A DNA stretch of 64,000 nt from Planctomycetota bacterium (GCA_039187315.1 JBCCZQ010000004.1:10675-74674); one strand, 5' to 3'. Counted from the stretch's first letter, positions 41,579 through 59,628 are shown. The notes: generated from the letters alone by a model not told the origin. Made by a program: numbers and translations.

Positions 41579-42205
41579 TCAGGCAGAACGCCGCTTGTGG
41601 GTGATGCCCTCGCGGACCCGGACGTTCGCGGCCGCATCGGCGCGCTCCGTCCAGTCGTCAACGCCGTTGAGCGAAAGCTCGTTGCCCTGCACCTTGCGGT
41701 AGCCCAAGAGCCGGATGACCTCGAGCACATCGGTCCAGTTCGGGTAGTGCTTGTTGTTGACGGCCTTGAAGGTCTCGATAGCCCGCAGGAACAGGAACTG
41801 CTCCGCGTTCATCTCGCCTTCCTCGGCGGCCTTGACGAAGTCGGGCAGGCGCCGGCCCGGCCCGCGTCGGCGTTCCAGGCCGCTCGGTCGGGTGTCAATG
41901 ACGTTCTTTCGGCGGTCCTCGCCGGGGCGTCGCTGCTCGGTGGGCGCAAGCTTCGGTCCGCCGCGCCGGGAGCCGCGTTCGGCGAGTTTGTCGGCGAGGC
42001 CGGGCTCGCTCTCGAGGCCGATCAGCCCATCAAGCCTCGACTCGATCGAGCCGTCATCGTCGTGCGTGTTGGCGAAGGTCTCGAGCTGTTCGAGGTCTTC
42101 GGCGTCCAACGGCCCGCTGATCTGCGACGGTTCGAGCGGCAGGCTGCCCTGCGCGGGCGGGCTGGTGTCGCGGCGTCGTCCGGCGTTGTCCTGTCCCGCT
42201 GGCAT
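41579..42205 (-). CDS. Hypothetical protein (acidic N-terminus, strongly basic middle, conserved-looking C-domain)
   Basis: The ATG is preceded by GGAGGGA at 6 nt, and codon bias is good. I have no family assignment. Confidence 0.6.
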   Translation of the reverse strand: MPAGQDNAGRRRDTSPPAQGSLPLEPSQISGPLDAEDLEQLETFANTHDDDGSIESRLDGLIGLESEPGLADKLAERGSRRGGPKLAPTEQRRPGEDRRKNVIDTRPSGLERRRGPGRRLPDFVKAAEEGEMNAEQFLFLRAIETFKAVNNKHYPNWTDVLEVIRLLGYRKVQGNELSLNGVDDWTERADAAANVRVREGITHKRRSA

Positions 42206-42264
42206 CGGTGTTCCCTCCGTCCGTTGGCGTGCTGGCGCCCCGGGCGTTGGGTCACGCCGGGGCG

Positions 42265-42531
42265 TCAGAGGTCGTCGGATTCATCGTCCTCGTCGTCACC
42301 GTCGTCCTCGTCCTCGTAGTCGTCGTCGTCGAGATCGCCCGGGTCCTCGTCGTCGTCATCGTCGTAGAAGTAATCGTCGTCCTCATCATCGTCATAGTCG
42401 GACACGGCGGGCGCGCTCTCGGGCTGTCCGAGAACCGCGGGCGGCGTCGCGAGGGCCTCGATCACACAGACCGGCGTGTCGCCGGCATCGGGCACGATCG
42501 TCGCGGTGTCTGCTTCGGCGTGGGCGATCAT
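42265..42531 (-). CDS. Small hyper-acidic protein (poly-D/E/Y tail)
   Basis: The ATG is preceded by GGGAGGA at 6 nt. The last 45 aa or so are almost entirely D/E with interspersed Y (DYDDDEDDDYFYDDDDDEDPGDLDDDDYEDEDDGDDEDDESDDL). The opposite-strand reading (poly-V) is implausible. Confidence 0.5.
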   Translation of the reverse strand: MIAHAEADTATIVPDAGDTPVCVIEALATPPAVLGQPESAPAVSDYDDDEDDDYFYDDDDDEDPGDLDDDDYEDEDDGDDEDDESDDL

Positions 42532-42707: not shown

Positions 42708-43376
42708 GTGCAAGCCACGATGTCCGAGTCCATGCCCAAGCTCATGCCAGATCCGACACCAGATCCGACACCAGATCCGACGCCACAGCCCAAGCCAGCC
42801 CCGGCGTCCCCGCCGGATCCCGAGGCGACGGCGGATGCCGATGCAGCGCAGGCCGGTAGACCTGCCGCGCCGGAGTCGGTCGGGATGCGTCGCGGGTTTG
42901 CGCCCGTGGCTGGGGTGCTGGCGCTGCTGATCCCTGGGATGGGGCACGCCCTGCTGGGACTGCGGGTCCGCGGCAGCCGGATCGCTGCTGGCGTGCTCGG
43001 CCTGTTCGCGTTCGGCCTGCTGATCGGGGGGATCGACGCGGTCGACAGCCGCGAGGACCGCTGGTGGTACATGGGCCAGGCGCTCGTGGGCCCGACCGCG
43101 TGGGCGGTCGATACGGTGCACCAGAGCTGGTTCAAGCACCCCGCTCGGGATTCGTCGCTGCCGCGCAAACCTGCCCCGGGTGAGGTGGTGACCAGCGAGG
43201 GGACGATCGAGTACGGCGGGGCCGCCGCGCCCGAGCCGCGGGTGCGCAAGGGTCTGGGCCGGGTCAACGAGATCGGCTCGCTGGCGTGTGCGCTGGCGGG
43301 CTTGATGAACGCGATCGCCATCCTCGACGCTGCCTTCCCCCCGCTGCGACGGAGAAAGGAAGGCCTGAAGCTGTGA
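42708..43376 (+). CDS. Membrane protein (PDPT-repeat N-terminus, 2-3 TM helices)
   Basis: The helices VAGVLALLIPGMGHALLGL, AAGVLGLFAFGLLIGGI and LACALAGLMNAIAIL are present. The N-terminal repeat is PDPTPDPTPDPTPQPKP. Confidence 0.6.
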   Translation: MQATMSESMPKLMPDPTPDPTPDPTPQPKPAPASPPDPEATADADAAQAGRPAAPESVGMRRGFAPVAGVLALLIPGMGHALLGLRVRGSRIAAGVLGLFAFGLLIGGIDAVDSREDRWWYMGQALVGPTAWAVDTVHQSWFKHPARDSSLPRKPAPGEVVTSEGTIEYGGAAAPEPRVRKGLGRVNEIGSLACALAGLMNAIAILDAAFPPLRRRKEGLKL

Positions 43377-43650: not shown

Positions 43651-45114
43651 CTAGGCGTAGCGGCTGCGATCGGTGCGGAACGGCTCGTCGAGGTTCACGA
43701 TCATGTACCGCAGCGCGTCCGCGGCGTGGTCGGGGCCGTCCTTGGCCGGCTCGAGGCTCGTCGGCGACTGCTCCGGGTAGTGGTAGCGCTCGAGCGCGTC
43801 GATCAGGTGCACGCACCGGCGGTGGATGAGCAGCTTCGCAGGGCCCGACGCGGGCGCGAGCCGGGCTGTCACGAGCCGGATCCCCTGCTGGACGGCCGAG
43901 GGACGGGCGCGGACGGTCAGGCCGGCGTGTCGCAGCACAGCGATGTCGCTCAGCCCGGTCTGACCGGAGCGCTGGTGGCCGGCGGGGTCGACGCCGATCC
44001 AAACCGGCGCTGGCCAGCCGCCGCCGCAGATCGCGCGGGCGTGGTCTTCGAGCACGGTCTCGCGTTCAACGCGTTCGCCGACAACGCGGACCACGCCCTC
44101 TCGGTCGACGCACGCGTGCAGGACGACGGTCGGTGCCCGGAATCCGAAGTCCATGCCCGCGATCCAGGTCAGTCCCGACGCATCATGCTCGACCGCATCA
44201 TCGAAGACGTGCGCCGTCCGGTCGAAGGCCGGGTAGACCGCGTCCGTTCGGCGTGGGCGTTTGCAGAGCATCTCGGACTCCCAGACGGGCAGCGAGACGC
44301 GGCGCTTCATCGTGATCGCGTCTTCGATGTCGATGTGACCTTCCTGCTCGGGCGGGAGCACCTTCGCGCGGCCGCCGCACTCGTCCCAGAGCGCGCAGGG
44401 GGTGCCGTCTGCTGCGTGGCATTGAAACTCGTCGGTGCAGCGGGCGAGGACGTCGGTGACGCCCCACTTGAACAGGGCTCGCGTGCCGCGTTGCGCCTCG
44501 CTGACGAGGTCGGCCATCATGCCAAATGGCCGGTGCATGGTCGAGAGGCACTCGATGACGCCGCGGACGCGTCCGCCCTCGAGGTTGGTCGACCGCGTGA
44601 CGAGCTGGGCGGCCTCCCAGATAGCTGGGCTGATCAGGTCCACCTCGTCGCAGCGGAGCTTCTGGACGCGTGTGCCTCGGATGGCGGCGTGGCTGGCGGC
44701 GAGGAGCTCGACGCGGGAGCCGCTGGTCAGCCGCAGGCGCTTGTCGGTCGGCTTGCCATCGACGAGCTCGGCGAAGCCGGGTCGCTCGAAGATGCCGCGG
44801 AGGTGCGCGTGCATGCGGCCCGCTTGCTCGAGGCTGCCCGCAACGATGCGGATCTCGACGCCGGGCTTGAAGACCATGTCCAGTGCCGTGGCGACGGCGC
44901 CCAAGAACGTCTTGCCCCCGCCGCGGTTGGCCCAGACGACCGCGTCGCGCGGCCTGCGGTCCTCGAAGAAGGCGTGGCAGATATAGGCGAACGGTGCGCC
45001 CAGGCCCTGGCAGCCGGCGGGCGTCACCGCCCCCATCGGCGGACGGGGCATCGTTACCCCGATGCGCTCCCGGAGGAACCCGTGCAGCTGGTCATCGTTT
45101 TCTGGCCGGTCCAT
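43651..45114 (-). CDS. Terminase-large-subunit-like ATPase-nuclease (orphan TerL)
   Basis: Walker A (VVWANRGGGKTFLG), Walker B (KLRCDEVDLI) and an RNase-H-like nuclease half with acidic motifs (IAGMDFGF, WIGVDPAG, GPDHAADALRYM) are all present. The start is ambiguous: 45180, 45114 or 45051. Confidence 0.75.
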   Translation of the reverse strand: MDRPENDDQLHGFLRERIGVTMPRPPMGAVTPAGCQGLGAPFAYICHAFFEDRRPRDAVVWANRGGGKTFLGAVATALDMVFKPGVEIRIVAGSLEQAGRMHAHLRGIFERPGFAELVDGKPTDKRLRLTSGSRVELLAASHAAIRGTRVQKLRCDEVDLISPAIWEAAQLVTRSTNLEGGRVRGVIECLSTMHRPFGMMADLVSEAQRGTRALFKWGVTDVLARCTDEFQCHAADGTPCALWDECGGRAKVLPPEQEGHIDIEDAITMKRRVSLPVWESEMLCKRPRRTDAVYPAFDRTAHVFDDAVEHDASGLTWIAGMDFGFRAPTVVLHACVDREGVVRVVGERVERETVLEDHARAICGGGWPAPVWIGVDPAGHQRSGQTGLSDIAVLRHAGLTVRARPSAVQQGIRLVTARLAPASGPAKLLIHRRCVHLIDALERYHYPEQSPTSLEPAKDGPDHAADALRYMIVNLDEPFRTDRSRYA

Positions 45115-45862
45115 GGTCCCCGTCCCCTGTTTCGGATCGTGCTTTCGGTCGCTCGGCGGCGTAGGCGATGGGCGGGGCAAGCAGGGCGCCTGCAGCGAGG
45201 GCGGCCAGGCGGTCGACCGTCAGGCCGCGGGCCCGGCGGGTCGACGCGTTGGCTCTCGACCACGTGCGCAGCGCGCGTTCGAGCGATGGCGACGGAGTCG
45301 TGCGCTTGCGCAGCAAACGTTCGGCTGCTTCTTCGACGTCCGCGGTGCGAAGCGCGGCCAGCAGCCTGCGGTCACGGTCGGGCATCGCCGGCGCGGGCAG
45401 GCGTCGCATGCCGGCCCGCTCAAAGAACGGGCAGACGGCGCCCATGGCGGCGATCGCCTCGGTGTGCTCGGTCTCCGGGTCGGCGAGGTATGCGCGAACG
45501 AGCCGCACCGCGAGGCTCAGGCCGCGGTAGCGAGGATCGACGATGACGCGGCTGATGGTGCGCAGGCCCGTGTTGATCGCCCGGGCGCGGGCCCGCTTGT
45601 CGGGGTCGCAGTAGCGTCCTGGCCAGGCGTGTGCTCGCCAGAGCCCGTTGAGCGTCGGCCGGCTGCTGACGAGCACACCGGCGAGCTCGCCGCGGCGGGT
45701 CTCGACGGCTCGCAGGACGCGGCAGATCGTGGCGGGATGCCCCGGTCGGTAGTGCAGCGGGGCGAGGGCGCGGTAGTTGCTGCGCTCGCCCGGCTCGATA
45801 CGGAGCCTGTGGTGCTGATCGGGCCCCGGTTTGGTGTCGATCAGGAACGCCGGTGTTCGCAT
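45092..45862 (-). CDS. GNAT-fold (acetyltransferase-like) protein
   Basis: The acetyl-CoA-binding-type motif RVIVDPRYRGLSLAVRLVRAYL (Q/RxxGxG/A-like) precedes a beta-alpha pattern. The ATG overlaps the upstream gene by 22 nt. Confidence 0.6.
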   Translation of the reverse strand: MRTPAFLIDTKPGPDQHHRLRIEPGERSNYRALAPLHYRPGHPATICRVLRAVETRRGELAGVLVSSRPTLNGLWRAHAWPGRYCDPDKRARARAINTGLRTISRVIVDPRYRGLSLAVRLVRAYLADPETEHTEAIAAMGAVCPFFERAGMRRLPAPAMPDRDRRLLAALRTADVEEAAERLLRKRTTPSPSLERALRTWSRANASTRRARGLTVDRLAALAAGALLAPPIAYAAERPKARSETGDGDHGPARKR

Positions 45863-46551
45863 AGTCCCCGCCGCCCAGGATCGAGCCTGTGGATCTCGGC
45901 GGGTGCTTCGAAGGGGACGAAGACAAGCAGGTCTGGGCGCAGCTCGGCGGCGAGCTCGTCGTGGGCTGTGGCCGCGACAAGGCCCGTGTCCGCGGGCAGT
46001 GTTCGTCGCGCGGCGACAGCCAGTGCCGAGGCGGTGGGGGAGTCGAGCGTGCTGGCGAACTCGTCTGCGAGGACGAGCGCGGCTCGGCCGGAGGCGTCGC
46101 GGATGCTGCGTGCGTTGTCGAAGGCGAGCGCGATGGCCAGGCGGGCGCGCTCGCCCTCGGAGAGCCGTCCTGCGGGGGTGACGAGCCGGCGGGCGTCAGC
46201 GAGGCCGAGCCGCGAGAGCAGGGTCAGCGCCTCGTCGAGCGGCCGATCGATGAGATCGACTGGGGCCTTGCGGATCCGCCTCGGGACAGGTTCGACGCGG
46301 ACGCATCGCGGGTGTGAGCGCGCGAGCGCGTCGATCAGCAGGGACTTGCCGGCGCCGCTTGGGCCTGTAACGAGCGCGGCGGTGCAGGTTTCCAGCTCGG
46401 CTCGGAGTCGTTTGGCGTCATCGATAGCGCGTCGGCGGACGGTCCTGGCGCGCTGTCGGCCGGCGCTGGGTTCGATGGGCAGGCCGAAGGCTGCGCGGAC
46501 ACGCGTGGTCCTGGTCAGGCCGGTGCGTTGGCGTGGGCGTGGCTCAGTCAC
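45841..46551 (-). CDS. Soluble ABC-type ATPase (no permease partner)
   Basis: Walker A (VTGPSGAGKSLL), a signature-like LSEGERARLAIALA, Walker B (LVLADEFASTLD) and the H-loop (ATAHD) are present. The GTG start overlaps the upstream stop by 8 nt. Confidence 0.7.
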   Translation of the reverse strand: MTEPRPRQRTGLTRTTRVRAAFGLPIEPSAGRQRARTVRRRAIDDAKRLRAELETCTAALVTGPSGAGKSLLIDALARSHPRCVRVEPVPRRIRKAPVDLIDRPLDEALTLLSRLGLADARRLVTPAGRLSEGERARLAIALAFDNARSIRDASGRAALVLADEFASTLDSPTASALAVAARRTLPADTGLVAATAHDELAAELRPDLLVFVPFEAPAEIHRLDPGRRGLCEHRRS

Positions 46552-47014
46552 CGCGGCGGTCCCGCTGGTTGGGCGCGGCTCGCCCGGTCTCCTGGGCGAG
46601 CTCGAACATGGCTTCGACGGCGTCGCGGTGCCTGCGGACGCTGTAGAGGCTCATGCCCAGCTCGCGTGCGATGACCCGGAGGCTCTTGCCCTTGATGTAG
46701 TGCCAGTTGGCTACGCGTCTCCGTGTTGGGCGCCAGCTATCAGCCTGGGCGGCCACGAAATCGAACCTCGGGTCGAGCATGCGTGTGGTGATGCGTCTGG
46801 CGCGTCGGCGGAGGGCTCTTGGGTCGGTGCCGAGCTCGGCGGCGATGGTCGAGCATGGACGGCCGGCGTCGAACATGTCCTCGATGAGGCGTCGATCGGG
46901 GGGATCGAGGAGCTTGGCTCTTCGTGTGAGCTGCTGGGCCTGGGCGCGTGTGCGACGGCGTCTCAGGTCGGTCGTGTTGGTACTGGCGGCGACGAGCGCG
47001 GTACTGACAATCAT
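46544..47014 (-). CDS. Small protein with two sigma-70-region-4/LuxR-like HTH units (TerS-like or regulator)
   Basis: The two HTH segments are RPCSTIAAELGTDPRALRRRARRI and KSLRVIARELGMSLYSVRRHRDAVEAM. I trimmed the track ORF (47068) to the ATG at 47014, which has GAGG 5 nt upstream. Confidence 0.6.
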   Translation of the reverse strand: MIVSTALVAASTNTTDLRRRRTRAQAQQLTRRAKLLDPPDRRLIEDMFDAGRPCSTIAAELGTDPRALRRRARRITTRMLDPRFDFVAAQADSWRPTRRRVANWHYIKGKSLRVIARELGMSLYSVRRHRDAVEAMFELAQETGRAAPNQRDRRGD

Positions 47015-47058
47015 GAAAACCTCGTTTCTAAGTTGTTTGGGGTTGCAATCGCGCCGAT

Positions 47059-47084
47059 CTGTGTTCACAATTGAAAAAACACAG
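47059..47084. promoter_or_regulatory. Candidate operator: perfect inverted repeat CTGTGTT-N12-AACACAG overlapping a TTGCAA-N17-CACAAT promoter-like element
   Basis: I read this directly at 47059-47065 / 47078-47084. The -35-like TTGCAA is at 47043-47048 and the -10-like CACAAT at 47066-47071. It lies in the 112-bp AT-rich divergent spacer. Confidence 0.5.
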
Positions 47085-47126
47085 CAGCATGTTCTCTCAA
47101 GACAGAACTATTTGCAAGGAACTTGT

Positions 47127-48131
47127 ATGGTAAAGCTCCGAAAGGGCGCACACCGGCGGTCGGTTGGATCCTGTGTGGATGAAACTGGGCGTTCCAGTGA
47201 TGCTGGGCAAGCGCGTGTGGGTCGTTCTGTTGGAGGCGGTGCGATCAGCGGGCTTCGTTTGACGAGCTTGGGCTTGCTGCTGCGTGAGCGGCGAGTGTCG
47301 CTGGGTCTGTCGTTGACGACGCTGGCCGCTCGCGTTGGATGTGCGAAGAGCCTGCTTTCACAGATCGAGACGGGCGTGCGATCGACGCCGCCGAAGCCGA
47401 CGATGCTGCGCAAGCTGGAGTCAGCGCTCGGCTGGCCGGCTGGCTGGCTGGATGAGCCGGCAGCGTGGGCGCGGACGCCCGAGGGGGTTCGCCGGCAGGT
47501 GGAGCGGAGTTCGGAGGCAGCGCGTCGGCTGCGTGCGATCCTCGCCGAGGCCGCATCGGGGTCCGGGTCGGACCGGGTCCGTGCGGGGTCGGTTCGCGGC
47601 ACGCTTGACGGTTTGTACGCATCGGGCGAGCTCCGCCGGCTCGTAGATGCGGTGGATCCTCTTGGGTCGGCGTTGAGGGGTCCGGGCCTGGATTCGGTGT
47701 TTCCCGCTTCGCTGCCGCACGAGGTGCCGCTAATCAACCGCGTGGTGGCGGGGTACCCGACGGAGTTCACGGATCTGGGGTATCCGGCGCGGGTGGCGGA
47801 CGAGTATGTGCGTGTGCCTGATCTGGCGGACCCGGACGCGTTCGCAGCGCGTGTGGTGGGCGATTCGATGTCGCCAGACTATCGGGAGGGGGATGTCGTG
47901 GTGTTCAGCCCAGCGAAGGCTGTGCGCGACGGATGTGACTGCTTCGCTCGCCTGGAGCCCGATCAGACCACAACCTTCAAACGGGTCTTCTTTGAGACGG
48001 ACGGCGATGGGGCGGAGCGGATCCGGCTTCAGCCGCTGAACGCGTCGTATCCGCCGACCGTGCTGCCGCGATCGGAGGTGGCGGGGCTGTACCGGGCGGT
48101 TTCGGTCGTACGGACGCTGCCGGACGGTTGA
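47127..48131 (+). CDS. LexA/CI-like self-cleaving repressor (XRE-type HTH + S24 peptidase domain)
   Basis: The HTH is LSLTTLAARVGCAKSLLSQIETG. The C-domain is collinear with LexA: Ala-Gly cleavage region LINRVVAGYP, Ser nucleophile VVGDSMSP, Lys general base TTFKRV. I trimmed the ORF to the ATG at 47127. Confidence 0.8.
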   Translation: MVKLRKGAHRRSVGSCVDETGRSSDAGQARVGRSVGGGAISGLRLTSLGLLLRERRVSLGLSLTTLAARVGCAKSLLSQIETGVRSTPPKPTMLRKLESALGWPAGWLDEPAAWARTPEGVRRQVERSSEAARRLRAILAEAASGSGSDRVRAGSVRGTLDGLYASGELRRLVDAVDPLGSALRGPGLDSVFPASLPHEVPLINRVVAGYPTEFTDLGYPARVADEYVRVPDLADPDAFAARVVGDSMSPDYREGDVVVFSPAKAVRDGCDCFARLEPDQTTTFKRVFFETDGDGAERIRLQPLNASYPPTVLPRSEVAGLYRAVSVVRTLPDG

Positions 48132-48448: not shown

Positions 48449-49699
48449 ATGGCGAAGATGTTCTACTCGCTCGACGAGGCGGCGCAGGCGTTGGGCAAGA
48501 CGCCCGCCGAGATCCGGGCGATGGTCGAGTCGGGCGAGTTGCAGGAGTTCCGTTCGGGGGACGATCTTGTCGTCAAGCGTGAGCAGGTCGACCTGCTGCG
48601 CGGCGACGATCCGAGCGAAGGCTCGATCGCGAGTGAGATCCTCGGGACGGGCGACACGGGCGTTGGTGAGGTCGGCGCCGAGGCGTCCGCGTTCGACGAG
48701 GACTCGCTGGGCATGATCGGCTTGTCGGACTCGGTGATGGACGACGATGCGCCGATCGTCGATGCGGGCAACGAGGACAGCCTGGTGATCGGCCTCGAAG
48801 AGAGTTCCATGGCTGGCTCGCTGAACCAGGAGGATCTTGGGCAGCCGGAGCTTGGCGATGAGATGGCGGACGAGCCGTCCGACACGGGCGTGTCGGCAAG
48901 CTCGGGCGGGAGCATCGGGCTGACGGACTCGGTGACGGACACGGCCGCGGTCGTTGGCGACACAACGGCGGGCAGCAGCACGAGCGATCCTTCGCCCAGC
49001 GGCGACTCGGTTGGTTTGAGCGGCAGCGGCCTTGGCAGCGGTATCGGCTTGGCGCCGCTGACCGATCCTGCTGACCCCGGCGCGAGCGGTTCTGGCGTGA
49101 TCAGCCTGGCGAACGAGTCGGGCGGCGATATCCCGATCGAGCTCGGCAGCGTGGACGCGAAGGATCAGACGGGGATCAGCATCTTCGACGACTCGCTGGA
49201 GGACGACGACGCGTCCGCGGCGACGATCGTGACCACGGATGCGACGGCGCCCGACATGTCGACGCCGGACTTCGATGCCGGCGCATCGGGCTCGGGCCTG
49301 CTGGACCTGACACGCGAGGGTGACGACACGTCGCTGGGTGTCGACCTGATCGGCGATGCGGGCGGGAGCGCCGCGGGCGTCGACGCCGGCGTAGCGGCTG
49401 GTGCGTTGTTCGAAACGCCCGACGCTGGCGAAACGGATCTGGCGACGGCTGCGCCGATGGCGGCATTCGCCGAGGCGTACGACGGGGGCGGGTCGGGGCT
49501 CGTTGGTGGGCTGGCGCTGGGAGTGATCCTCGCGGCCCTGTTCACAGGTGCGATCGGCATCCTGTGGATGCGCGGTGGCACCGGTGCGCAGTTGTTCGAG
49601 CTGATCGGCGATGTGCCGTGGTTCGCGCCGGCGGCGGCTATCGCTGGGCTGACGCTGGTGGTCACGCTGATCGCGTGGGCGCTTGGGCGTCGCGGCTGA
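48449..49699 (+). CDS. Excisionase/MerR-type HTH protein with long acidic disordered region and C-terminal membrane anchor
   Basis: The N-terminus MFYSLDEAAQALGKTPAEIRAMVESGELQEF is HTH_17-like. About 280 aa of D/S/G-rich sequence follows, then two C-terminal TM helices (LVGGLALGVILAALFTGAIGILW, APAAAIAGLTLVVTLIAWAL). Confidence 0.65.
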   Translation: MAKMFYSLDEAAQALGKTPAEIRAMVESGELQEFRSGDDLVVKREQVDLLRGDDPSEGSIASEILGTGDTGVGEVGAEASAFDEDSLGMIGLSDSVMDDDAPIVDAGNEDSLVIGLEESSMAGSLNQEDLGQPELGDEMADEPSDTGVSASSGGSIGLTDSVTDTAAVVGDTTAGSSTSDPSPSGDSVGLSGSGLGSGIGLAPLTDPADPGASGSGVISLANESGGDIPIELGSVDAKDQTGISIFDDSLEDDDASAATIVTTDATAPDMSTPDFDAGASGSGLLDLTREGDDTSLGVDLIGDAGGSAAGVDAGVAAGALFETPDAGETDLATAAPMAAFAEAYDGGGSGLVGGLALGVILAALFTGAIGILWMRGGTGAQLFELIGDVPWFAPAAAIAGLTLVVTLIAWALGRRG

Positions 49700-57703: not shown

Positions 57704-57775
57704 GCCGCTGTAGCTCAGTGGTAGAGCGCACCCTTGGTAAGGGTGAGGTCGTGGGTTCAAGTCCCACCAGCGGCT
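57704..57775 (+). tRNA. tRNA-Thr (anticodon GGT)
   Basis: The sequence GCCGCTG TA GCTC AGTGGTA GAGC G CACCC TTGGTAA GGGTG AGGTC GTGGG TTCAAGT CCCAC CAGCGGC T folds as a full cloverleaf of 72 nt. Confidence 0.92.
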
Positions 57776-57988
57776 TTGGTGTTGGCCGGGCGTGCGGGTT
57801 TGTTCCGTGGTGCGGCCTATCGTGTGTACTGGCCCGGTTGGGTTCCCGTGGTGGGTGTGCCCGGTCGGTGTGTGCAACGGATCCGAGTCGGCGGGGCGTG
57901 CCCGGCGGCAGGGTCGGATGGATGACAGGAACGGCTGGTTCGGGCGTTGGGCCCGTGCCGCGAGCAGCAGAGTTGGAGGTTTCGGGCC

Positions 57989-59194
<1,206 letters not shown>

Positions 59195-59293
59195 CGCGAT
59201 TTTTTCCGCGTCTGCCCTGCGAGAGTCGGGCGGACGTCTTGGTGGTGTACGGGCGGAGGGTCGACCGCCGCCAGTGTGAAAGGGAGGCCCGCG

Positions 59294-59476
59294 ATGGCCA
59301 AGAAGAAGGCGGCGGCGCGTGAGTACGTGTGGCTTCAGTGCACCGAGTGCAACGATCTGAACTACCGGACGCAGGTGAACGTCAAGGGCGGCCTGCCGGA
59401 AAAAATGAAGGACGGGATCCGGAAGTATTCGCCCCGGCTGCGGAAGCACACGCTGCACAAGATCAAGCGGAAGTGA
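59294..59476 (+). CDS. rpmG: 50S ribosomal protein L33
   Basis: The sequence MAKKKAAAREYVWLQCTECNDLNYRTQVNVKG...KYSPRLRKHTLHKIKRK carries the L33 CxxC signature and has the expected length. Confidence 0.9.
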   Translation: MAKKKAAAREYVWLQCTECNDLNYRTQVNVKGGLPEKMKDGIRKYSPRLRKHTLHKIKRK

Positions 59477-59555
59477 GTTGGGCCGTGCGGAGCGGGCAAC
59501 AGGCAATGGGTTCAGCCCGTCCTTCTGCCTGGAGCCTGTTGCCGGCTGGTTCTGA

Positions 59556-59628
59556 ACGCCAGTAGCTCAGTTGGTAGAGCAGTGGATTCCAAATCCACCG
59601 GTCGGGAGTTCGAGTCTCTCCTGGCGTG
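59556..59628 (+). tRNA. tRNA-Trp (anticodon CCA)
   Basis: The sequence ACGCCAG TA GCTC AGTTGGTA GAGC A GTGGA TTCCAAA TCCAC CGGTC GGGAG TTCGAGT CTCTC CTGGCGT G folds as a cloverleaf and is followed by TTTTTTG. Confidence 0.9.

Follow-up and report, generated by a model that had tools for sequence, protein, structure and literature searches.

A putatively domesticated phage packaging region under a CI/LexA-type repressor in the chromosomes of Phycisphaerales

A block of five genes within a 64 kb stretch of Planctomycetota DNA (GCA_039187315.1, JBCCZQ010000004.1:10675-74674; high GC, about 68%; hereafter the window) is best explained as the domesticated remnant of a siphovirus packaging region, chromosomally fixed in the order Phycisphaerales and under the control of a co-opted phage repressor of the CI/LexA type. 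We place the probability of this reading at roughly 0.6. The block comprises a repressor gene and, divergent from it, an operon of four genes encoding a DNA-binding protein with two helix-turn-helix domains (2xHTH), a soluble ATP-binding cassette (ABC) ATPase, a protein of the GNAT acetyltransferase fold and an ATPase-nuclease resembling the terminase large subunit (TerL) of phages. A first-pass annotation of the same DNA had described these five open reading frames (ORFs), and its coordinates and domains are borne out by ORF calls, by Pfam and PHROG searches and by the fold of the GNAT protein. It had offered three options for the block, namely a domesticated prophage fragment recruited to an SOS-type switch, an anti-phage module and a satellite-like packaging hijacker. 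The first is supported by the order-wide block, the autocleavage residues of the repressor and the operators described below. An anti-phage island or a satellite hijacker is disfavoured by the presence of one locus per assembly in 80 loci, by housekeeping flanks, by a correlated divergence from those flanks (rho 0.6-0.7) and by the lack of any integrase or att site found at the locus.

Distribution and layout of the five-gene block

Relatives of the TerL-like protein are numerous, with more than 2000 found in a collection of 5.8 billion proteins. The best 120 of them are 51-76% identical, and all of the named ones come from metagenome-assembled genomes of Phycisphaerales or Planctomycetota, several on megabase contigs. 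When a single genome for each GTDB species was scanned, at least 572 proved to encode a TerL relative. The loci of the best 80 of these were compared using tblastn with the window proteins; they lie in 80 different assemblies, one locus each, nearly all of which are labelled Phycisphaerales, Phycisphaeraceae or Planctomycetota. One locus labelled 'Cyanobacteria bacterium CYA' (L023, RHKP01000007.1) holds a full Phycisphaerales-type block with a TerL 55% identical to that of the window, and its contig has probably been mis-binned.

The genes for the repressor, 2xHTH protein, ABC ATPase, GNAT protein and TerL stand in the same order and orientation in 57 of the 64 loci that have at least 4.2 kb upstream of TerL. 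The first-pass annotation had proposed asking whether the gene set recurs elsewhere without virion genes, and in the loci and flanks compared here it does. Genes for a peptidase S8, UbiA and MarR usually flank the block on one side, and genes for a small membrane protein, a DUF6677 protein, a 208-aa protein and a ferredoxin on the other. Three loci (L019, L028 and L052) have rearranged flanks around an intact block. The host gene for DUF6677 follows TerL in 50 of 71 loci, with a different downstream neighbour in the remaining 21. In five loci with variant flanks, the downstream genes tested are metabolic (NADH dehydrogenase, amidase, guanylate kinase) or have no Pfam match, and are never virion genes.

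The similarity of TerL to the window copy tracks that of the flanking 208-aa protein, MarR and UbiA (Spearman rho 0.61-0.70). Median identity to the window copy is 54% for TerL and likewise 54% for the repressor, compared with 58-62% for the host flank genes (MarR 58%, UbiA 59%). Order-wide collinearity, shared flanks and co-divergence together point to an old, fixed and vertically inherited locus rather than a prophage, a satellite or a defence island. As judged from these comparisons, the five genes travel together by vertical inheritance, and the catalytic motifs of TerL, the ABC ATPase, the GNAT protein and the S24 peptidase of the repressor are under purifying selection. TerL thus seems to belong to the core chromosomal genes of an entire order, the marine Phycisphaerales.

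The operon is compact (Table 1). The stop of the 2xHTH gene and the start of the ABC gene overlap by 8 nt, the ABC and GNAT genes by 22 nt, and the GNAT stop and TerL start by 23 nt, and on the strength of these overlapping stops and starts the four genes are read as tightly coupled. All three overlaps had been given in the first-pass annotation, the last of them as 'probably' 23 nt, and each is confirmed by reading the sequence. The 112-bp spacer that it placed between the operon and the repressor gene also holds, being backed by close orthologues in which alignments start at residue 1 of both genes and the spacers measure 114-129 bp. The ATG of the 2xHTH gene, at 47014, is preceded by GAGG and is aligned in close orthologues. 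The TerL start at 45114 is the same as the NCBI start of an identical protein (P0001). A further in-frame TTG upstream, at 45180, is an unlikely start for TerL. A scan of 43.4-48.4 kb for sigma-70 promoters and terminators returned no sites and is uninformative for this phylum, and Rfam gave nothing at E<=0.1 across 41-50 kb.

Table 1. Features of the five-gene block and its control region, in window coordinates
Feature	Position	Strand	Remarks
TerL-like ATPase-nuclease gene	43651..45114	-	487 aa; last gene of the operon
GNAT-fold acetyltransferase-like gene	45092..45862	-	256 aa; C-terminal helical domain
Soluble ABC-type ATPase gene	45841..46551	-	236 aa; GTG start
2xHTH DNA-binding protein gene	46544..47014	-	156 aa; first gene of the operon
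Divergent control region	47015..47126		112 bp; relatively AT-rich; both operators and both ribosome-binding sites
Operator O1 TGTTCACAATTGAAAAAACA	47062..47081		TGTTC-N10-AAACA
Operator O2 TGTTCTCTCAAGACAGAACT	47090..47109		TGTTC-N10-GAACT; 17 nt from its end to the repressor ATG
XRE-HTH and S24 peptidase repressor gene, CI/LexA-like	47127..48131	+	334 aa; divergent from the operon

Phage relatives of the operon proteins

The TerL-like protein has the make-up by which terminases are classed, an ASCE ATPase followed by a C-terminal RNase-H-like nuclease with an acidic triad. It matches Pfam Terminase_6C at 30.3 bits (cutoff 22.6) and the PHROG family of terminase large subunits, phrog_2, at 4e-19. 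An alignment of 15 sequences shows conservation of the Walker A motif WANRGGGKTF, the Walker B motif KLRCDEV and the coupling motif LSTxH, and no variation in the acidic residues of the nuclease, which fall in GMDFG, GVDPAG and KDGxDHxxDALRY. Equally invariant are an insertion of the form C-x5-C-x7-C-x5-C between the ATPase and nuclease domains (residues 248-268) and a tyrosine within the last few residues. These two features, the four-cysteine insertion and the C-terminal tyrosine, are suggestive of a metal site and of contact with a conserved partner. The motifs of the window copy align with those of TerL from phages SSU5, nickie and RHEph10.

The ABC protein scores 32 bits against Pfam ABC_tran (cutoff 25), and its Walker A, LSxG signature, Walker B DE, D-loop and H-loop are kept in 66 orthologues. 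Most of these motifs (Walker A, signature, Walker B and H-loop) had already been recognised in the first-pass annotation, which named loss of catalytic residues in TerL or the ATPase as an observation that would tell against it; no such loss is seen in the 15 and 66 sequences, respectively. No permease or transmembrane partner for the ATPase was found within the block. Its profile retrieves generic transporter nucleotide-binding domains (NBDs) and UvrA from the PDB, and no SMC, Rad50 or RecF signature emerged from that search or from the fold search with an ABC-GNAT fusion.

Although the window copy of the GNAT protein falls under the Pfam GNAT threshold (E about 0.01), the GNAT fold proposed in the first-pass annotation is confirmed by an AlphaFold2 model with a predicted local distance difference test score (pLDDT) of 90.5, for which Foldseek against the PDB gives the GNAT fold at a probability of 1.0. 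Pfam GNAT matches are on record for several orthologues, and the protein matches phrog_886 at 1e-9. The acetyl-CoA motif RxxGxG/A is kept in 47 orthologues, its last position being Ser in the window copy. Neighbours in the PDB include TmcA/NAT10 and the tRNA-acetylating toxins AtaT, TacT and KacT, and Mom-like proteins are among the fold matches in BFVD. The TM-scores are low (0.3-0.45), so that these neighbours do not single out a substrate. The idea that the GNAT protein is the toxin of a toxin-antitoxin pair was rejected, as it is bigger than TacT and AtaT, is fused to an ABC protein in other lineages and lies in a syntenic core locus.

Around half of the lineages encode the ABC and GNAT proteins as a single polypeptide. 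One such fusion (P0153) was modelled as one compact unit (pLDDT 92.6, predicted TM-score 0.89), and the ATPase half resembles the transporter-type NBDs of HrtA, PhnK, MetN and FtsE, not SMC or Rad50. The joining of a GNAT domain, by fusion or adjacency, to a P-loop ATPase is shared with TmcA/NAT10 and phage Mu Mom, a DNA-modifying enzyme with a GNAT fold, all of which are among the best fold matches. However, TmcA and NAT10 are cytidine acetyltransferases with a RecD-like helicase ATPase, whereas the ATPase of the locus is an ABC-type NBD; the TM-scores to these proteins and to Mom are low (0.3-0.4), and the GNAT protein has no match to Pfam GNAT_acetyltr_2.

The first gene of the operon encodes a protein with Pfam matches to HTH_38 on one half and to Sigma70_r4_2 and HTH_28 on the other, and with a further match to sigma70-ECF region 4 in NCBIfam. 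Across the five proteins, NCBIfam returned only generic ABC, sigma-r4 and LexA C-terminal matches, far under their cutoffs. The 2xHTH gene is conserved in 70 loci, and all copies detected lie a short way upstream of TerL and on its strand. Its profile retrieves only sigma region 4 and transposase HTHs from the PDB. The protein is a candidate TerS-like DNA-recognition subunit or activator.

All five proteins of the block have phage relatives, as found by PHROG and tblastn. For the ABC protein, tblastn matches are restricted to one group of large siphoviruses and phage-plasmids, which comprises SSU5-like elements from enterobacteria, the nickie-like phages of Pseudomonas, the RHEph10-like phages of Rhizobium and two phages of Stenotrophomonas. 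Many of the TerL matches are SSU5-like and Rhizobium phage records, and the GNAT matches are six nickie-like records only. The phages nickie (L003, NC_042091), SSU5 (L094/L004, NC_018843) and RHEph10 (L095, NC_034248) are large siphoviruses or phage-plasmids that share a block upstream of the terminase, in which a ParB-like gene, a ParB or methyltransferase gene, an ABC gene, a small ORF, a GNAT-like gene, another small ORF and a gene for a DNA-binding protein precede TerL. Downstream of TerL, a portal is annotated in nickie and RHEph10 and a major capsid protein in nickie and SSU5. The GNAT-like protein of these phages is phrog_886, which is annotated 'ABC transporter ATP-binding subunit'; for both the ABC and GNAT-like phage proteins, the label 'ABC transporter' is probably wrong. 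What the first-pass annotation had missed is that the ABC and GNAT-like genes belong to a conserved phage module close to the packaging genes, and also that ABC and GNAT are often fused in the lineages that carry the block. A 46-kb viral contig (L093) likewise carries ABC, GNAT, an unknown gene and TerL in that order.

The likeness between this phage module and the Phycisphaerales operon extends to homologous ABC proteins (27-32% identity), GNAT-like proteins (24-28%) and TerL (about 24%), and to the order on one strand of ABC upstream of GNAT-like upstream of TerL. The two differ in their surroundings, as the ParB-like and methyltransferase genes upstream and the portal and/or capsid genes downstream in the phages have no counterpart in the Phycisphaerales block. 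They differ also in the place of the DNA-binding gene, which heads the operon in Phycisphaerales and sits directly before TerL in the phages. TerL of Phycisphaerales is nearer to another viral lineage, represented by contigs L085-L087 (31-36% identity), than to the SSU5 type. The TerL of L085, the one of these that was aligned, shares with it an N-terminal extension and the four-cysteine insertion, the latter being absent from SSU5-type TerL. A portal gene directly follows TerL in L085, and the related phage contigs L096 and L097 run from TerL to portal, protease and further genes of head-tail size. In the viral contig collection, only distant relatives of the locus were found. From the homology and order of the phage module it follows that the cargo of the operon was once part of the packaging region of a phage, and that everything downstream of TerL has been lost from it.

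The repressor, its operators and the neighbouring genes

The repressor matches Pfam Peptidase_S24 (5e-15; 55.7 bits, cutoff 23.3), HTH_3 (4e-10) and the PHROG family of transcriptional repressors phrog_4 (2e-29). The XRE HTH and the LexA/CI autopeptidase motifs noted in the first-pass annotation are upheld by Pfam, and 64 repressor orthologues retain the residues for autocleavage: V-A-G at the scissile bond, the GDSM serine and the TFKRV lysine. It is not a canonical LexA, because its score against the lexA equivalog TIGR00498 is far below the cutoff (27.9 against 110.95 bits) and covers the S24 part only; the N-terminal domain is of the XRE type.

A search for dyads in 63 spacers between the repressor and 2xHTH genes, that of the window counted among the 63, returned GTTC-N10-GAAC in 40, with no other dyad coming close. 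Allowing up to one mismatch, TGTTC-N10-GAACA occurs at 40 sites in 15.7 kb of orthologous spacers and at 19 sites in 1.14 Mb outside them, an enrichment of ~150-fold. The window spacer holds two such sites. Their start-to-start distance is 28-30 bp in the window and in two-site orthologous spacers, the half-sites of both dyads are invariant in seven aligned spacers (the window and six close orthologues), and in the closest spacers both dyads sit between the two ribosome-binding sites. With dyads this conserved and enriched in the spacer, the repressor almost certainly controls itself and the divergent operon, in so far as this can be read from DNA sequence. The operon is also probably inducible by DNA damage, as the autocleavage residues would predict.

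The operator half-site TGTTC/GAACA appears to resemble LexA half-sites reported from other phyla. One explanation of the locus builds on the repressor and holds that it is the non-canonical LexA of the order, with a wider SOS regulon of which the operon is merely the neighbouring member. This is compatible with the phage origin proposed above for the cargo, and is possible, though we lean against it. In Bacteroidetes and Streptococcaceae, phage-type XRE-S24 repressors do act as the SOS master regulator, as 'non-canonical LexA' (PMC8565304), and the repressor of the locus is as conserved as TerL, with the same median identity. However, the 19 sites outside the spacers are scattered with no recurrent position, the sole other match in the 64 kb of the window falls within an ORF, and the repressor gene has been lost from the locus in four lineages.

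Precedents have been published for a phage repressor with a divergent target. Across the genus Francisella, the co-opted phage S24 repressor FddR controls its own gene and a divergently transcribed one from an operator of the form GTG-N11-CAC (PMC13148647). FddR, the non-canonical LexA of Bacteroidetes, HdiR and the repressor described here share a phage CI-like XRE-HTH joined to an S24 domain with an Ala-Gly cleavage site and a Ser/Lys dyad. Systems of the FddR type are also clade-wide and chromosomal, with a long-spacer palindromic operator in a divergent promoter and with self-regulation, the last being predicted for the locus here. They differ in cargo, which in Francisella is one gene of unknown function, or dinB, and here is a four-gene operon derived from phage packaging. 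Induction and binding have been shown by experiment for FddR-type systems, and are predicted for the present locus. The regulatory layout is of a known kind, then, and what was not found described in the literature or in defence models is the cargo and its fixation across an order.

Among 20 window ORFs outside the block that were scanned with Pfam, a set that does not exhaustively cover small ORFs, none belongs to a phage, integrase or recombinase family, and none encodes a portal or capsid protein; portal and capsid genes are equally missing among the downstream genes of the five variant-flank loci. The scanned ORFs have cellular families or no match, and include genes for an extracytoplasmic function (ECF) sigma factor, MetRS, a B12-binding protein, DUF6677, EF-Tu, RNase E/G, PtsI, a carboxypeptidase, a Ser/Thr kinase, a methyl-accepting chemotaxis protein and a SpoIIE phosphatase. 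A search for att-like direct repeats around the block gave only short repeats at the level expected by chance in GC-rich DNA, and no tRNA gene is adjacent, the nearest being 9.5 kb off. The first-pass annotation had reported no virion, integrase, recombinase or att-like element in the window, and this held in the Pfam scan and the repeat search. Genes for tRNA-Thr, EF-Tu (57926-59194) and tRNA-Trp occupy 57704-59628, which puts the block about 10 kb from core translation genes.

Several further observations concern the flanks of the block. Just downstream of the repressor, on the + strand at 48449-49699, lies a gene for a 416-aa protein with a weak N-terminal HTH_17 match, a long, acidic middle of low complexity rich in Gly, Ser and Asp, and a C-terminus that is hydrophobic. 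In 43 related loci this gene occurs close to the block, and it moves independently when flanks rearrange, e.g. in L052. In L019, L028 and L052, genes of the left flank are inverted to the other side of the block. Beyond TerL, the DUF6677 membrane protein gene that is convergent with it contains a tandem 12-nt repeat at 42735-42794, encoding PDPT repeats at the N-terminus of the protein. A 9-nt periodic repeat rich in GTC/GAC at 42262-42408 encodes an extreme Asp/Glu run in an 88-aa ORF (42265-42531, - strand), which is immediately upstream, on the same strand, of the gene for the 208-aa protein (41579-42205). The latter protein has no Pfam match and is 50-80% identical across loci. GC skew in the window is positive over 1-18 kb, negative over 19-41 kb and positive again over 42-64 kb, a pattern not explained simply by the strand of the genes; the second change of sign is about 1.5 kb to the left of TerL. 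The switches at ~18-19 and ~41-42 kb may mark an inverted segment of 23 kb.

Proposed mechanism and competing explanations

If the block is a domesticated packaging-region remnant, it could work as follows. A repressor dimer would sit on both operators and keep both promoters off. Upon DNA damage, RecA-ssDNA filaments would stimulate the repressor to cleave itself at Ala-Gly by means of its Ser/Lys dyad, and the operon would be expressed. The 2xHTH protein might then bring TerL to DNA as a small-terminase-like partner, or might activate further genes. TerL would act as an ATP-driven translocase and an RNase-H-type nuclease on cellular or incoming DNA, with no dedicated capsid, and the ABC-GNAT pair would form an ATP-gated acetyltransferase whose substrate may be nucleic acid or protein. 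Least certain is the physiological output, for which damage-induced DNA processing, chromosome degradation and interference with phage packaging are candidates. More tentatively, the block may be a captured packaging motor that works with no capsid, combining a damage-induced TerL, a two-HTH guide and an ATP-gated ABC-GNAT protein, or else the engine of an undiscovered particle or DNA-export system in Planctomycetota.

Some observations weigh against this account. Translocation by TerL normally requires a portal and a procapsid, and the invariant C-terminal Tyr of TerL, lying in a region that in several phage TerLs binds portal, hints at a conserved protein partner. When the 2xHTH family was compared by hhalign with the phage proteins that precede TerL in nickie, L085 and L093, the result was weak (17% probability, E=0.0015) or nothing. 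The strict operator, with up to one mismatch, is absent from 32 of 62 orthologous spacers, where the motif takes degenerate forms, and the prediction of damage induction rests on conserved S24 residues. Neither S24 nor ABC-GNAT is strictly required in every lineage, because four loci (L038, L047, L077 and L079) keep 2xHTH-ABC-GNAT-TerL with unrelated genes at the usual S24 position, and one locus (L065:8270-11626, DATAKA010000025.1) has the repressor, 2xHTH and TerL with ABC and GNAT absent and the 2xHTH gene abutting TerL. At the usual repressor position, L047 has an ORF resembling a periplasmic binding protein.

The main alternative is a dispersed system like a gene transfer agent (GTA), in which the head and tail genes would be located at other genomic sites and activated by the 2xHTH protein, and TerL would package DNA into the particles after SOS-type induction. 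The C-terminal region of several phage TerLs binds portal, and the invariant tyrosine there, together with a conserved N-terminal extension shared with a real phage TerL, suggests that partner contacts have been retained. The first gene of the operon encodes a two-domain sigma-r4-like DNA-binding protein, which resembles GafA, the activator of the Rhodobacter capsulatus GTA (RcGTA), and LexA has been linked to RcGTA production. RcGTA and other GTAs are likewise phage-derived, vertically inherited and host-regulated, with TerL under purifying selection, and an intact TerL is conserved vertically across the order here as in GTAs. However, GTAs have a full head-tail cluster in which TerL adjoins portal and capsid genes, whereas no structural gene lies near the locus in the window or in the compared flanks of the 80 loci: neither the 20 scanned ORFs nor the downstream genes tested in the five variant-flank loci include virion genes, and the other loci show the usual host flanks. 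Searching the 5.8 billion proteins with the portal of the closest viral relative gave 27 relatives, none from Phycisphaerales and none on a contig longer than 54 kb, a negative of little weight since this kind of search relies on shared words and its sensitivity is limited. We regard a GTA-like system as unlikely.

Improbable too is a fixed anti-phage or abortive-infection system, in which the ABC protein would sense phage DNA or proteins, TerL would serve as nuclease effector or packaging decoy, and the GNAT protein would be toxin-like. Defence systems repeatedly pair an ABC ATPase with a nuclease, as do OLD, Gabija, Septu and PARIS; the nearest folds of the GNAT protein include the tRNA-acetylating toxins named above, and parts derived from phages are often reused against phages. 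Against this, a single-copy locus that is syntenic with housekeeping genes and diverges along with them is the opposite of the patchy, island-borne pattern of defence systems, and having an S24 repressor as regulator speaks for DNA damage as the trigger, not for the sensing of infection. PADLOC 2.0 gave no matches for TerL, GNAT or 2xHTH, and only generic P-loop (mad3, mad8, JetC) or HTH matches for the ABC protein and the repressor. Literature searches (terminase domestication, GNAT-ABC-terminase, Phycisphaerae LexA, terminase-like defence) found neither a description of this gene set nor a defence system built around a terminase-like protein, in agreement with the first-pass annotation, which knew of no described defence or SOS system of this composition.

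A decaying prophage remnant, or a mobile satellite akin to phage-inducible chromosomal islands and with no host function, would account for the phage relatives of all five proteins, yet it is very improbable given the fixed chromosomal position, the lack of an integrase among the scanned ORFs, of an att site and of an adjacent tRNA, the merely distant relatives in the viral contig collection, and, decisively for a dead remnant, catalytic motifs that are conserved intact in dozens of orthologues, with 80 species sampled, at about 50% identity.

Read as a domesticated packaging region, the locus is a tractable example of the deep domestication of a phage motor. TerL is regarded as a virus hallmark gene, and is used to call prophages in genomes and metagenomes; the locus cautions against relying on TerL alone as a viral marker in Planctomycetota. 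In this locus, as in SSU5-type phages and phage-plasmids, TerL is linked to an ABC protein and a GNAT protein, which in the lineages carrying the locus are often fused, and learning what these partners do in one setting would shed light on the other. With this locus, the PVC superphylum also provides a case of an emerging pattern, in which co-opted phage S24 repressors build local responses to DNA damage. If the proposed mechanism is true, a capsid-free TerL working with an ABC-GNAT pair would be a new kind of SOS effector.

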